IMG/VR virus record: IMGVR_UViG_3300009964_000008
Coordinates: 1-49,182 of that record
From: a virus
Length of the DNA stretch: 49,182 nt
Reading direction: 5' to 3' (one strand)
The position numbers were made by a program, and so were the translations under genes. Position 1 is the first letter of the stretch. Each line of letters opens with the position of its first letter. The notes below the pieces were generated by a model, which ran no database searches, had not been told where the DNA came from, and was given only the letters and a program-made list of their open reading frames with translations. Shown here piece after piece: positions 651 to 49,182 of this stretch.

Positions 651-714
651 TGGTGAGCCGGTTAGGAATTGAACCTAACCACCGCGCGGGATGCGCAGCC
701 CATTCTAGCGGCCC
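651..714 (-). ncRNA. tRNA-like element A (no D stem, non-canonical anticodon-type loop, encoded CCA)
   Basis: RNA sense: GGGCCGC TA GAATGGG CTGCG-CATCCCG-CGCGG TGG TTAGG-TTCAATT-CCTAA CCGGCTC A CCA. It has a 6-bp acceptor stem with G2-U71, U8-A9, a canonical T-arm, and discriminator A plus CCA, followed by ATTTTT. Only 64 nt, with no D stem and A rather than U at loop position 33. Confidence 0.5.
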
Positions 715-3738: not shown

Positions 3739-3939
3739 ATGATACCTGGTATTATTCACTGTTTCCTGGCTCTTCTGTGGGCCGGTGCAGGGTTTATACT
3801 CGGCTACTGTCGGCATGATTGCCGAGACATCCTCAGTAGGCCCGTGTCGTTCCTGCTGGGACTCGCTACCTTTTGCGCGCTAGTTGAGTGCATCTTGCTC
3901 ATGGGTATTGGTGTCGCATTGATTGCGGGGTACCGCTAA
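3739..3939 (+). CDS. Small membrane protein (two hydrophobic helices)
   Basis: 66 aa with two hydrophobic stretches (IIHCFLALLWAGAGFILGY and LMGIGVALIAGY). Confidence 0.55.
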   Translation: MIPGIIHCFLALLWAGAGFILGYCRHDCRDILSRPVSFLLGLATFCALVECILLMGIGVALIAGYR

Positions 3940-6664: not shown

Positions 6665-6750
6665 CCCCTTGTGGCGAAATGGCATACGCAGCGCACTCAA
6701 AATGCGCCGCCCGCACGGGCATGTGAGTTCGACTCTCACCGAGGGGACCA
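6665..6750 (+). tRNA. tRNA-Leu (anticodon CAA), class II, CCA encoded
   Basis: Acceptor CCCCTTG/CGAGGGG (one G-U). Anticodon arm GCGCA-CTCAAAA-TGCGC. Long variable arm GCCC-GCAC-GGGC. T-arm GTGAG-TTCGACT-CTCAC. Discriminator A plus CCA. Confidence 0.9.
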
Positions 6751-6913
6751 CCGAGCACCGGACGATGCTGGATGATTAGGTGTATAAACCTGCCGCTCTG
6801 ATCAAGCGGCCGTGCCGGTTGCCGTGACGGGGGTCACGTGCGGGGTAGCACCCTAGGGCTGACAATTTTTGTGTGATGGTTTTTGTTTCGTCAGTCAACA
6901 GCACCCCTTCTAA

Positions 6914-6986
6914 CGGAATGTAGCGCAGTAGGTAGCGCACCTGGTTTGGGACCAGGGGGCCGTGAGTTCGAGTCTCACCATTCCGA
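6914..6986 (+). tRNA. tRNA-Pro (anticodon TGG)
   Basis: Perfect cloverleaf: CGGAATG TA GCGC-AGTAGGTA-GCGC A CCTGG-TTTGGGA-CCAGG GGGCC GTGAG-TTCGAGT-CTCAC CATTCCG A. Confidence 0.95.
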
Positions 6987-7046
6987 CGTTGCATACGCGT
7001 GTGTAACACCTAGTTCCCAGGTGTCCTCCGGGACTACCTGGGTTTA

Positions 7047-7117
7047 TCCCAGATAGTGTAATGGCAGCATGGCAGGTTTTGGCCCTGTCGGACTAGGTTC
7101 GAGTCCTAGTCTGGGAG
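7047..7117 (+). tRNA. tRNA-Gln (anticodon TTG)
   Basis: Acceptor TCCCAGA/TCTGGGA. Anticodon arm GCAGG-TTTTGGC-CCTGT. T-arm CTAGG-TTCGAGT-CCTAG. Confidence 0.85.
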
Positions 7118-7204
7118 CGCTTGACGATGAGGTTGCTCGATAGCACAAAGTGTCACGACCAAGACACCCCCATCGAACGGTTGGGTCACCCTGGTCAGGT
7201 GGCA

Positions 7205-7276
7205 AGCTGCTTAGTGTTAGGGGTTCAGCACGCTGAGTAAGATTCAGAGGGGCAGGTTCGAGTCCTGTAGCAGCAC
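7205..7276 (+). tRNA. Atypical tRNA or pseudo-tRNA (apparent anticodon AAG, short variable region)
   Basis: T-arm GCAGG-TTCGAGT-CCTGT. Acceptor is 6 bp plus an A1-A72 mismatch. U8-A9 present. Anticodon stem is only 4 bp with loop GTAAGAT. There is no long variable arm, although AAG would read Leu codons. Confidence 0.4.
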
Positions 7277-46574: not shown

Positions 46575-46826
46575 TTACTCACTTTCTGTAAAGTAGATTA
46601 CGTCTTCCAAGTAATTGACAGCGTTGTCCATTACGTAACTTTCCCATTCATCGTGATTATCAGGGTTCCCACCGTCTTCCAGATAATTATCCCACAATGC
46701 GTCTTCAATATCGCAATTATTGAACTTTCGTCCCTTGTAGTGCAAGATAGGGTCACTTTGGGAACCACACCACTCGAAACCAATATCGGGGATACCATAC
46801 CAATTATGCAACATGCTAATTCTCAC
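46575..46826 (-). CDS. Hypothetical acidic protein
   Basis: ORF-track ORF with ATGA overlap. Confidence 0.6.
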   Translation of the reverse strand: MRISMLHNWYGIPDIGFEWCGSQSDPILHYKGRKFNNCDIEDALWDNYLEDGGNPDNHDEWESYVMDNAVNYLEDVIYFTESE

Positions 46827-47287
46827 TTTCCACTAGGTTTGATTAGACAACTTTCGGTGTAAACGTCCAATACGTCGCAACCATCTAGCAGCCACGCGGC
46901 ATTGTCGATATCGCCGTCCCATTCTTCAATAGGGACACATTTCCAACCCTCGCTAACGATAATATCGTCAACAACATAACCGAGTGCGTCTGCCACACAT
47001 TCAGCCATTGCAGAGATACGGGCATTGGCAATCATTGCGCGCCTACGCGCCGGGTTACGCTCCATGTCATAGTTAGGTTCAAGGTATTCCCATTCATCGG
47101 GACGGCCCATTTTGTCCCACGCGAGGAACACATTAGCATCGTTGCACCAACCACCCGTGAGAGTGCACACTTCGTCCCAGATATCGCTACCGAAAACACT
47201 ACCGTTGATAACGTCCGCTGCAAATTCAACAGTGAGTTCAGGGTAAATGAGGGCCTTTGCGAGCTTGTAAGCGTACTCATTGCACAT
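46823..47287 (-). CDS. Hypothetical acidic Cys/Trp-rich protein
   Basis: RBS GAAAGG. First gene after tRNA-like element B. Confidence 0.65.
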   Translation of the reverse strand: MCNEYAYKLAKALIYPELTVEFAADVINGSVFGSDIWDEVCTLTGGWCNDANVFLAWDKMGRPDEWEYLEPNYDMERNPARRRAMIANARISAMAECVADALGYVVDDIIVSEGWKCVPIEEWDGDIDNAAWLLDGCDVLDVYTESCLIKPSGK

Positions 47288-47335
47288 GGTTCTACCTTTC
47301 GGTTTGTTGTTCGCTAACCACCTTGGTTAGCGTAG

Positions 47336-47385
47336 TTCCCTAGGCACGGATCGAACGTGCATTAAACCTACCATTAGGCTAGGGA
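47336..47385 (-). ncRNA. tRNA-like element B (acceptor stem + D-like hairpin + T-arm, no anticodon arm)
   Basis: RNA sense: TCCCTAG CCTA-ATGG-TAGG TTTAAT GCACG-TTCGATC-CGTGC CTAGGGA A. It has a perfect 7-bp acceptor stem and a canonical T-loop. Confidence 0.55.
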
Positions 47386-47400
47386 TACCCTTTCTAGGGG

Positions 47401-47601
47401 CTAGTATTCTTCCAGAATGAGAACACAGTCACCAGACACTAGCGCGTCATAAACAGGCCCTATCTTATCAATACGCCCTTCGATTGTCTTGGTAACCAGT
47501 GGTTCACCAAGTGTCGCCGCATCCTTGCGCAGTGCGTCAATATGGGCTTCAAGCGCGATACGGATAAAGTCCATCTGTTCCCAGGTCAGTTCCATTGTCA
47601 C
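47401..47601 (-). CDS. Hypothetical protein
   Basis: GTG overlaps the upstream TGA (GTGA); alternative ATG at 47595. Confidence 0.6.
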   Translation of the reverse strand: MTMELTWEQMDFIRIALEAHIDALRKDAATLGEPLVTKTIEGRIDKIGPVYDALVSGDCVLILEEY

Positions 47602-47777
47602 GCCTCAATTTCTGACATGACTACCGCATCCGACAGGCCGTCAAGGGCGGTCACCACCGCGTCAAGGGCGGCAAGCACGCTGGGATTATCGCCGTAGTCG
47701 GCTCCCATCTTTCGAAACGTAATCTTAGCGGCGGTAGCGGCCTTGATAACAGTCATGGTGTCCTTGTTGATTCGCAT
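47598..47777 (-). CDS. Hypothetical 59-aa protein (below ORF-track cutoff)
   Basis: ATG at 47777 after GAAAGCGAG. Reads MRINKDTMTVIKAATAAKITF...SEIEA-TGA. First ORF after promoter P3. Confidence 0.5.
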   Translation of the reverse strand: MRINKDTMTVIKAATAAKITFRKMGADYGDNPSVLAALDAVVTALDGLSDAVVMSEIEA

Positions 47778-47832
47778 TTGAGTTGTCTCGCTTTCTGTTT
47801 GTTATTTGCTTAGGCTGTTTGCCTATGACTAA

Positions 47833-47861
47833 ATAGTAGCTTGGTTGTGAGTTGCTGTCAA
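47833..47861 (-). promoter_or_regulatory. Leftward promoter P3: TTGACA-17-TACTAT
   Basis: rc of 47856-47861 is TTGACA and rc of 47833-47838 is TACTAT. Downstream TTTAGTCATAGGCAA resembles P1 and P2. Confidence 0.65.
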
Positions 47862-47865
47862 GTTG

Positions 47866-48228
47866 TCAGAGTGTGTTGTGCATCACGGGCACTAGCGTTG
47901 CGTTCGGCTCAATGCACGCAGAATACGCGCGCATACTCTCGAAAGTCTGCCAGTCAGGGCGCATGTTGTCCCGCCACATGCTGATAATCTTCCCAATGAC
48001 ACGTTTCTCATGGGGCGTGAGTGTCACATCCTTGTAAACGTAGACAGCGCCGCTGGGATTAAACTTGAAGATAATTTCGGTGGTATCCTCCCTAGCTACC
48101 CAGTAGCTAATCCAATTGCGCGCTAGGTCATTGTGATTCATCGTGAGATACAACTTAGAACCAAGTTGCACAGACTCGCCAATGATCTGGTTAGGATACA
48201 CCGACAACAGGGCGTTGTTGATAGTCAT
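47866..48228 (-). CDS. Hypothetical protein
   Basis: ATG at 48228 in TAAAATG with the upstream stop. The ORF-track start 48432 overlaps the upstream gene. Confidence 0.6.
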   Translation of the reverse strand: MTINNALLSVYPNQIIGESVQLGSKLYLTMNHNDLARNWISYWVAREDTTEIIFKFNPSGAVYVYKDVTLTPHEKRVIGKIISMWRDNMRPDWQTFESMRAYSACIEPNATLVPVMHNTL

Positions 48229-48229
48229 T

Positions 48230-48613
48230 TTAGGCGACCTCCCTAACATTGATAAACTGCGCGCCGTTACCGTGAATAGTCTCATTGTCACACTCACGGT
48301 CGCACGCCTTATAAAGCGTATCCCAATCAATGCGGCGACCAACCATTGCCGATAGGAAACGGCGAACGTGTCGGCTAGTAGTAGTGGAATGGTGGAAAGC
48401 GTCACGATGGACAAACGTATCCCAGTCATCATTTTCGTTCTTGTTCACCATTGCAACGCGCGTTGTGTATGAGTACACGTCAAACCGACTATTGCAAATC
48501 GGGTGGTTATGGTTAGCCGCAATATTGAAGTTTCGCGCGACAGGGTAAAAACCACTCACCCGGTTGTGTAGCAAGTCCCATGCGGCGCTATCAATGTCAT
48601 TCAGAATACCCAT
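48230..48613 (-). CDS. Hypothetical protein
   Basis: RBS GAAAGG. The translation-initiation region is identical to that of the 48901 gene. Confidence 0.65.
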   Translation of the reverse strand: MGILNDIDSAAWDLLHNRVSGFYPVARNFNIAANHNHPICNSRFDVYSYTTRVAMVNKNENDDWDTFVHRDAFHHSTTTSRHVRRFLSAMVGRRIDWDTLYKACDRECDNETIHGNGAQFINVREVA

Positions 48614-48643
48614 TGTCTTTGCCTTTCTGTGTTGGGTTGTTGG

Positions 48644-48901
48644 TCAGTACTGCCAACCGTCACGGTCGGTATCGGTCGCAAACTCTCGCAACGTTGCGCC
48701 GAACGGGTAGTAATCGCCCCACGCTTCCATATCGCGCGCGATACGTTCCATCTCACGGCGTTCACGTGCCCTAATGCGCTTGCTAAGGTCACGCCGGGCC
48801 TTAGTGTAGGGGGAGTGTTCGCGGCGAAACTCGCTAGGGTTCCAGCTAACCCCGCGCGCTTCCTTGACGTGCCAAGGGTCAGTCTTGAAAGTGTGTGCCA
48901 T
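48644..48901 (-). CDS. Hypothetical basic/acidic protein
   Basis: RBS GAAAGG. First gene after tRNA-like element C. Confidence 0.65.
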   Translation of the reverse strand: MAHTFKTDPWHVKEARGVSWNPSEFRREHSPYTKARRDLSKRIRARERREMERIARDMEAWGDYYPFGATLREFATDTDRDGWQY

Positions 48902-48947
48902 TGTCTTTGCCTTTCGGTTTGTGCAACACCTCGGTTGTGTCGCATCG

Positions 48948-48998
48948 TTCCCCCGGTTGGAATTGAACCAACCTTGACACTCACCATTAAGCGGGGGA
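48948..48998 (-). ncRNA. tRNA-like element C (acceptor stem + D-like hairpin + T-arm, no anticodon arm)
   Basis: RNA sense: TCCCCCG CTTA-ATGG-TGAG TGTCAAG GTTGG-TTCAATT-CCAAC CGGGGGA A. It has a perfect 7-bp acceptor stem and a canonical T-loop. Confidence 0.55.
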
Positions 48999-49012
48999 AG
49001 TTGAAGACTTAA

Positions 49013-49182
49013 TTAGTCTTCGTACGTGTAATTCACAATCTCGCGCGGGCCGGTGTAATAGGCGAACTTGTAAATGATGCGCTCGCTTCCATCGGGACTA
49101 GGGACAGTCACACTCACGGGTAGGTACCCGTGCATGGTGTAGGCATAACCGCGCCGCTCACCCGGGAACTGTGCGTCAAAAA
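49013..49182 (-). CDS. 3' portion of the wrap-around gene (49056-49182 duplicates 1-127)
   Basis: Same frame as 1..251(-). Ends ...YTGPREIVNYTYED with TAA at 49015-49013. Confidence 0.6.
   Translation of the reverse strand, partial: FDAQFPGERRGYAYTMHGYLPVSVTVPSPDGSERIIYKFAYYTGPREIVNYTYED
49056..49182. repeat. Terminal direct repeat, copy 2 (identical to 1-127)
   Basis: Exact duplicate of the window start. Confidence 0.95.

Follow-up and report, generated by a model that had tools for sequence, protein, structure and literature searches.

Anticodon-arm-less tRNA-like RNAs between the early genes of an uncultured phage and their possible role as processing signals

The window, by which we mean the whole 49,182-nt stretch of viral DNA analysed here, is a circular assembly: positions 1-127 and 49056-49182 form an exact 127-nt duplication, a k-mer-sized overlap that leaves a unit of 49,055 bp and is apparently no terminal repeat of biological origin. 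Because of this overlap, a 97-aa gene wraps around the ends of the window, as the original prediction had proposed, running from its ATG at 251 off position 1 and resuming at 49182 down to 49013. Its TAA (49015..49013, minus strand) is separated by 14 nt from a 51-nt tRNA-like sequence, element C, and the ATG of the next gene (48901..48899, minus strand) lies 46 nt 3' of the element. On the minus strand, positions 48998..48948 read TCCCCCG-CTTAATGGTGAG-TGTCAAG-GTTGGTTCAATTCCAAC-CGGGGGA-A, exactly the sequence and coordinates that had been given for it, with the segments TCCCCCG / CTTA-ATGG-TGAG / TGTCAAG / GTTGG-TTCAATT-CCAAC / CGGGGGA / A. The features of the locus, in the direction of transcription, are:

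49013..49182, minus strand: 3' part of the upstream 97-aa gene, translation MRDTTH...NYTYED, then stop (terminal overlap, translation)
49003..49021, minus strand: upstream 7-bp hairpin GAAGACU-AAUUA-AGUCUUC, ending 4 nt before element C (sequence)
48948..48998, minus strand: element C, an anticodon-arm-less tRNA-like RNA (sequence, MFE fold, covariance models R1 and R2)
48998-48992 with 48955-48949, minus strand: acceptor of element C, 7 bp
48991-48980, minus strand: D-like hairpin of element C, 4 bp, loop AUGG
48979-48973, minus strand: 7-nt linker of element C, from D-like hairpin to T stem
48972-48956, minus strand: T arm of element C, loop UUCAAUU
48948, minus strand: discriminator A of element C
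48922..48944, minus strand: downstream 8-bp hairpin UGCGACAC-AACCGAG-GUGUUGCA (sequence, folds)
48915-48910, minus strand: RBS GAAAGG (sequence)
48901-48644, minus strand: downstream 85-aa gene, ATG at 48901-48899 (sequence, translation)

The described three-way junction is both the MFE structure and the centroid of element C (RNAfold; -21.5 kcal/mol, z = -2.8), and 2 of 200 shuffles fold as well, which bears out the anticodon-less tRNA-like fold ascribed to it. The original prediction had further described the unit as stop codon, element and RBS. This order stands, whereas the hairpins on both sides of the element and a near-invariant C at position 74 had been overlooked. The upstream hairpin encloses the TAA (49015-49013) of the preceding gene, and the downstream hairpin starts 3 nt past the discriminator, behind the spacer C74-G-A (48947-48945). 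The U tract of a terminator is absent at element C. Orthologues of the element keep the upstream hairpin with differing loops, a downstream hairpin whose stem varies in sequence, and the same order of RBS and ATG.

Further tRNA-like sequences of the window bear on element C:

47336..47385, minus strand: element B, the second family member (models R1 and R2, fold)
about 47388-47400 and about 47312-47332, minus strand: hairpins flanking element B upstream and downstream, with an ATG at 47287
651..714, minus strand: element A, a related tRNA-like element of a distinct class, opening the leftward operon (fold, covariance model)
7205-7276, plus strand: fourth tRNA-shaped sequence, 3' of tRNA-Gln, starting with A1 and having a weak D arm

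Element B (47385..47336) adopts the same fold as C, in keeping with the architecture that the two had been said to share. In their DNA, B and C have in common a 7-nt D-loop stretch and a few tetramers; 6 of the 16 pairs are changed on both sides and every pair is kept, so the stems do differ while retaining their pairing. A mechanical T-arm-plus-acceptor scan of the window gave the set that had been picked out by eye, namely A, B, C and the four sequences at 6665-7276, together with a few chance matches that have no T-loop. When the window was searched with models R1 and R2, B and C were the only copies of the family, both in the leftward arm. With two copies and element A alone, any 'punctuation' in this genome is sparse.

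Element A combines a 5-6 bp acceptor with a GG-containing unpaired loop. It and its variants carry an extra 6-7 bp hairpin with a loop of 4-6 nt, not a 7-nt anticodon loop, and a 6-7 bp T arm with UUCAAUU, each of 7 bp in A itself, and they encode ACCA followed by AUUUU; only the T arm of A matches the B/C model. Seven conserved variants, whose middle hairpin and T stem show compensatory changes, occur in other loci, and variants were located in L003 (~3816-3874), L009, L014 (~920-981), L023, L025 and L045. An alanine identity of the G3:U70 type was rejected for element A, as the G-U pair moves or vanishes among orthologues. In the element arrays of some relatives, the intergenic slot is occupied by a full-length tRNA-like sequence that includes a pseudo-anticodon arm (L017:3003-3073, minus; L022:208-283, plus, which equals L060:5386-5461, plus); for these, ARAGORN reports 'tRNA-???' and an odd 'tRNA-Ala(AGC)' whose anticodon is at position 33. 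Armless elements and fuller tRNA mimics may thus form a continuum. The sequence at 7205-7276 is called by neither ARAGORN nor Rfam in the window; ARAGORN calls tRNA-Leu(AAG) for an L023 sequence whose ends match it, the ends alone having been compared. Around element A we also recorded a Y-shaped hairpin set upstream of it (about 835-775, minus strand) and a gap of ~1.5 kb between the divergent arms (~720-2200), mostly without convincing genes and with listed short ORFs of up to 72 aa. This gap holds promoter-like TTGACA-N17-TANNNT sites in leftward orientation, found by eye at about 1062-1030 and 960-928, a 36-nt direct repeat (AAGTTAGGTAAG...) at 1095-1130 and 1136-1171, and a perfect 14-nt inverted repeat ATGCATATTATGCA/TGCATAATATGCAT at 1455-1488.

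None of the established RNA classes accounts for element C. No Rfam 15 family reaches its gathering threshold at the site, and in the whole window three tRNAs alone do so. RF00005 gave no match to element C at E<=10, even with a 101-nt query, ARAGORN made no call at A, B or C and reported three tRNAs at 6665-7118 only, and the tRNA-Sec model scored 15.7 bits against a threshold of 47 bits. Element C does have the top-half features of a canonical tRNA (acceptor/T stack, T loop, G53-C61 and GG). The four-arm cloverleaf, by contrast, is not formed, and we rejected a canonical tRNA, 7 nt alone lying between the D-like hairpin and the T stem. More generally, the elements share with RF00005 tRNA and the tmRNA domain the acceptor, the T stem, UUCRA, a G18G19-type GG and the purine discriminator; they differ from canonical tRNA in having no anticodon arm, no nucleotides 8-9 and a D loop of 4-5 nt. 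The elements are not tmRNA because they have no tag ORF, pseudoknots or encoded CCA; the acceptor of C also has no G-U pair, its 3' side continues A-CGA, and ARAGORN finds no tmRNA there. A viral 3' tRNA-like structure of the TYMV type was dismissed as well, the element being internal to the operon of a dsDNA phage and its acceptor stem being plainly Watson-Crick. So was an attP core, given multiple divergent copies per genome, the presence of both acceptor strands and no integrase hit among the scanned ORFs. The best sub-threshold match to C came from Plastid-ycf2 (RF04354), on the opposite strand and with 25.8 versus 65.7 bits. This identity was rejected, the score being far below threshold and the match falling on the reverse-complemented T arm. 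The antisense matches of this 5'UTR family lie at 48947-48998 and 653-714 on the plus strand. Part of its consensus, GGAAUUGAACC, is a tRNA T arm in reverse complement, and RF04354 may itself be a family antisense to a tRNA-like sequence. What element C does share with t-elements is a tRNA-like fold with a conserved T arm, placed at a cistron boundary in sense orientation.

Element C belongs to a sizeable family. An IUPAC pattern derived from B and C matched in 15 IMG/VR contigs, and a looser pattern matched 56 viral-contig stretches, 92 metagenome stretches overlapping the viral set, and 4 contigs of about 50 kb or less that are binned into Actinomyces, Rothia and Atopobium MAGs. A covariance-model search, which had been suggested with a lack of copies elsewhere as the result that would speak against the idea, instead returned 153 copies at E < 0.01, representing 100 distinct sequences in 64 related loci (model R1; element C 66.8 bits, element B 74.8 bits). 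A second model, R2, was built from A3, an alignment by MAFFT of the 82 distinct copies that were left once every C-type sequence had been removed, and contains sequences from other contigs only, without window or C-type copies. R2 recovered element C with 65.3 bits (E 2.6e-17) and element B with 68.3 bits, the best unrelated match in the window being part of tRNA-Leu at 17.5 bits. The match of element C is far beyond chance. Family members measure roughly 48-56 nt. In the 29 kb of Arthrobacter phage Amigo searched with R1 no element was found, and blastn of a 683-nt query around C against the INPHARED phages gave no match.

Pairing is maintained throughout the family. In the R1 alignment of the 100 distinct sequences, 98.6% of pair cells are standard pairs, compared to at most 58% in controls with slid partners, and changes on both sides occur at 14 of 16 pairs, in 360 cells. 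Because the R1 alignment is fitted to its own model, an independent test was run on A3: de novo folding by RNAalifold gave the same three helices, with 12 of 15 pairs compensatory. Compensatory changes are thus seen across the family in all three helices, and the selection on structure proposed from B and C alone holds for the larger set. G-U pairs are frequent, being present in 36 of 100 sequences at each of two D-hairpin pairs, and this abundance indicates that the structure is read on the sense RNA strand. Judged from its sequences, the family is a well-supported new structured RNA, whatever its function. These covariation data also effectively refute the reading of the elements as decayed tRNA pseudogenes with no present function: the acceptor end and D-loop sequence do resemble phage tRNA-Gln, and neither ARAGORN nor Rfam calls the elements tRNAs, but a precise architecture in 100 distinct sequences with compensatory substitutions and near-complete pairing, subtype and position kept at orthologous sites, and up to 8 copies per operon leave this explanation practically no probability.

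The conserved anatomy is that of a tRNA reduced to its upper half. Across the 100 distinct copies, near-invariant features are a 7-bp acceptor stacked directly on a 5-bp T stem (a 12-bp stack), G53-C61, a T loop UUCRAYY of the T54-Psi55-C56-R57-A58 type, a purine discriminator, and GG in a D-like loop of 4-5 nt (NNGG) on top of a covarying 4-bp stem. Neither nucleotides 8-9 nor any part of an anticodon arm is present. The linker from the D-like hairpin to the T stem measures 5-7 nt across the family and would correspond to position 26 plus the variable loop, left over after removal of positions 27-43. The GG loop can in principle dock on the T loop, giving a predicted tRNA 'elbow'. In the acceptor, pairs 5-7 vary freely, whereas pairs 1-4 are conserved far above the need for base pairing (U1-A72 in 92, C2-G71 in 100, C3-G70 in 87 and C4-G69 in 95 of 100 sequences). 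They are identical to the first four pairs of the phage tRNA-Gln, TCCCAGA...TCTGGGA-G, an identity that suggests an origin from a tRNA of this kind, a reader specific for the sequence, or both. Position 73 holds A or G and is followed by C74 in 120 of 121 contexts; since C does not occur at position 75, no family copy encodes CCA. An N73-C74-nonC trailer is likewise seen in the phages' genuine tRNA genes, except tRNA-Leu(CAA), which encodes CCA. At position -1, the family copies have A, U or G.

The fixed layout of stop codon, element and RBS that had been noted for B and C extends to the family, whose copies do lie between a stop codon and the next RBS. For all 148 copies with enough flank, an ORF ends no more than 80 nt upstream (median 12.5 nt), a lenient test, as 97 of 146 antisense controls pass it too; the element would sit just beyond the footprint of a terminating ribosome. 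An RBS with start codon follows within 150 nt in 132 of 146 copies (median 48.5 nt). All copies of a locus are on one strand, that of the flanking ORFs. Up to 8 copies occur per locus, and in some loci 6-8 copies are spaced by 0.36-1.7 kb, roughly one per small gene. The family sits intercistronically among small early genes, and the small genes adjoining the elements have no known function by Pfam or PHROGs; the leftward arm of the window also encodes PolA, primase, a Sak4-type ATPase, an exonuclease and an SNF2 helicase. Hairpins accompany the element on both sides. Of 134 distinct contexts, 107 have an upstream hairpin, which in most cases ends 0-4 nt short of the element (mode 1), and 113 have a downstream hairpin starting 0-5 nt past the discriminator (mode 3). 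The hairpins persist among orthologues while their stem sequences differ. The whole unit is thus hairpin, element, hairpin and RBS. The same module was seen in two larger contigs, L107 (121 kb) and L069 (62 kb), which possibly represent different phages, and the family may extend beyond the ~50-kb phage clade.

Comparing the early region of the window (~46800-49182 and 1-1400) with related contigs (L003, L001, L005, L007, L010 and L013), we observed indel and transposition junctions at the tRNA-like modules. A 154-aa gene (47287-46823) and a 66-aa gene (47601-47401) are missing or replaced in several relatives, the former being absent directly after the B module in L005, L007 and L010. In L003, a homologue of the 'wrap-around' gene is flanked by two other elements, with a B-type copy after it. 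The elements coincide with boundaries of mosaic gene cassettes.

Among cultured phages, the terminase, capsid and PolA proteins of the phage are closest to those of Arthrobacter phages (30-42% aa identity), and its endolysin is closest to those of Eggerthella, Propionibacterium and Corynebacterium phages. The MAG labels of family-bearing contigs are Actinomyces, Rothia and Atopobium, and several such contigs come from HMP samples. Together, the phage-protein relatives, MAG labels and HMP origin indicate that the host is probably a human-associated member of Actinomycetota. Among 40 ORFs examined by Pfam and PHROGs, no RNase P- or RNase Z-like, CCA-adding, RNA ligase or integrase protein was found; a 195-aa protein encoded just upstream of the terminase gene has a weak 'Rnase E' PHROG match. 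When contigs ending at the element were sought by exact-protein look-up of the downstream gene, only DNA assemblies of about 49 kb were returned.

How might such an RNA serve an early operon? We give about an even chance to the reading that the family members are tRNA-like processing signals in the early operon, excised by host tRNA-maturation enzymes; cleavage, the enzymes acting and the effect on mRNA stability are what we infer from sequence. The elements would be transcribed within the leftward early operon and recognised by the tRNA-maturation enzymes of the host. RNase P would cleave on the 5' side of U1. The cut at R73/C74 would be made by a 3' endonuclease, either RNase Z or an actinobacterial RNase E that cleaves 5' of C. 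With the element removed, the polycistronic RNA would fall into separate pieces. A stem-loop would close the upstream piece, which would so be shielded from 3' exonucleases, and the downstream piece would begin 3-4 nt before a stem-loop, with its 5' end shielded and its RBS free. Stem-loops at mRNA 5' and 3' ends protect bacterial mRNAs, and the flanking hairpins are predicted at the positions expected of such end-protecting structures after excision. The system would be a phage version of 'tRNA punctuation' or of t-elements.

The features of the element can be weighed against what is known of these enzymes. Bacterial RNase P and RNase Z recognise the 12-bp acceptor/T stack and the elbow of T loop and D loop, and R73 and C74 contact the L15 loop of type-A RNase P RNA. 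The R73-C74-nonC trailer, resembling that of a pre-tRNA, counts for the processing-signal reading. Among the points against it, bacterial RNase P generally prefers U at -1, where the family has A, U or G, and for B. subtilis RNase Z a C at position 74 is not reported as the favoured residue. The over-conservation of acceptor pairs 1-4, another such point, is not an obvious need of a pure processing signal and hints at a sequence-specific reader. A dependence of RNase P on R-CCA is reported (PMC12710915), and mycobacterial RNase E cuts immediately 5' of C (PMC10641625). By analogy, the invariant C74 would fit both an RCCA-type contact with RNase P and RNase E cleavage 5' of the cytidine.

The processing reading has counterparts in other systems. 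Animal mitochondrial tRNA punctuation likewise uses tRNA-shaped units between cistrons to define the cleavage sites that release mRNAs; those units are decoding tRNAs, whereas the phage elements cannot decode because they are without an anticodon arm. In MALAT1 mascRNA and MEN-beta, a tRNA mimic in a longer transcript recruits RNase P and/or RNase Z, and the tRNA-like-miRNA transcripts of murine gammaherpesvirus-68 represent a viral use of a tRNA mimic for transcript ends; in all of these a small tRNA-like product is released that is not aminoacylated. Unlike the phage family, they are eukaryotic, have a cloverleaf with an anticodon-arm analogue, occur in one or few copies and are not intercistronic. 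Closest in kind are the t-elements of plant mitochondria, which direct RNase P and RNase Z to mRNAs, the ends of the t-elements coinciding with 5' and 3' ends of mRNAs made by these two enzymes. They carry a conserved GGTTCRANYCC T arm, and the excised element can gain a non-templated C or CA (PMC1920247). Common to both are non-decoding tRNA-like folds with an acceptor-like stem that adjoin protein-coding sequences. The t-elements differ in being organellar, in usually forming a fuller non-canonical cloverleaf and in occurring as scattered single copies, whereas the phage family is homogeneous and arrayed; conserved flanking hairpins are a feature of the phage family and are not described for t-elements in the text consulted. 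Cleavage is demonstrated for t-elements, and for the phage elements it is predicted. In bacteria, RNase P processes phi80 M3 RNA, the precursor of the P1/P7 C4 antisense RNA and, at intercistronic regions, E. coli polycistronic mRNAs (PMC11143913). These M3, C4 and operon sites are idiosyncratic structures, whereas the phage family is a conserved, covarying, multi-copy mimic of the tRNA elbow.

A first alternative places the function in trans: mini-tRNAs of ~50 nt, excised here too by RNase P and a 3' nuclease and possibly given CCA, would accumulate early and titrate a host factor as decoys or sponges. In this view, processing would serve to release the RNA, which is the actual product, and the factor would read the acceptor end or the elbow. 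Candidate targets are defence toxins that modify or cleave tRNA 3' ends (nucleotidyltransferases of the MenT/AbiEii type, pyrophosphokinases of the CapRel type) or a tRNA-binding enzyme. The conservation of acceptor pairs 1-4 past pairing need with pairs 5-7 free, the identity of the former with those of the phage tRNA-Gln, the near-invariant R73 and C74, and the multi-copy occurrence confined to an early operon among small genes without known function would all suit such a reader. However, no candidate partner was found, no RNA-processing or tRNA-related phage protein was detected among the scanned ORFs, and the flanking hairpins and the tight spacing to stop codon and RBS are better explained by a role in cis; the conservation of pairs 1-4 could equally reflect cleavage-site requirements or shared descent. 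We therefore consider a trans-acting decoy fairly unlikely, and the stronger proposal, that the early operon is a production line of many CCA-bearing mini-tRNAs with a fixed acceptor identity, acting in trans for example as decoys of host defence enzymes that attack or modify the acceptor ends of tRNAs, or as sponges of a tRNA-binding factor, is if anything a shade more doubtful.

The place in cis could also be put to use without any cleavage, with a tRNA-like domain in the 5' UTR controlling (re-)initiation downstream or insulating cistrons. A fixed site between a stop codon and the next RBS, with structured elements immediately upstream of the RBS, is what one would expect of such a regulator. 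We think it quite improbable nonetheless, above all because the element does not sequester the RBS: RBS and start codon are unpaired with the element in all predicted folds, and a separate hairpin lies between them. Moreover, no alternative conformer is evident, there is neither an Rfam match nor a U-tract terminator, and the conserved features are those recognised by tRNA-processing enzymes, not by ribosomes or known riboswitches.

Even less probable is a DNA-level linker, at which early genes would be shuffled by recombination and the RNA fold would be incidental or secondary. The breakpoints of homology and the gene-sized indels that fall at the elements in comparisons with related contigs, including the absence of gene 47287-46823 in L005, L007 and L010 and the transposed gene in L003, would follow naturally from such a linker. 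Mosaic breakpoints at conserved intergenic sequence are, however, also expected as a by-product, and the divergence among copies within a genome is too great for homologous recombination to be efficient. The scanned ORFs gave no integrase or recombinase hit. The frequent G-U pairs would be A-C mismatches on the other strand, and the conservation of the T loop and the GG loop follows the logic of RNA tertiary structure. Together with the low DNA identity between copies, both argue that recombination at the elements is a by-product.

Organelles, eukaryotic lncRNAs and a herpesvirus provide known examples of a tRNA mimic serving as a signal for RNA processing, and the literature searched gave no prior description of phage tRNA punctuation or of tRNA-like elements in actinobacteriophages. 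What is new here is the setting in the early operon of a dsDNA phage, the minimal design without an anticodon arm, the organisation in arrays with flanking hairpins, and the fixed identity of the acceptor end. As the elements are invisible to tRNA finders and Rfam, the family also matters for annotation, its members marking the borders of gene cassettes in uncultured phages that form a common clade in human-associated (HMP) metagenomes. As a natural mimic pared down to the tRNA 'top half plus elbow', it should help in studies of how RNase P, RNase Z and the CCA-adding enzyme recognise RNA. The conserved acceptor-end identity makes a decoy or anti-defence role directly testable, and if the RNAs did act in trans, they would form a new class of phage anti-defence or host-takeover RNA. 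Should tRNA-processing enzymes instead prove to cut the elements, tRNA punctuation would be described for the first time in a bacteriophage operon, and mitochondrial t-elements as well as engineered tRNA-spacer arrays would have a natural counterpart there. Phages would then programme the segmentation and end protection of their early mRNAs with the housekeeping RNases of the host alone.
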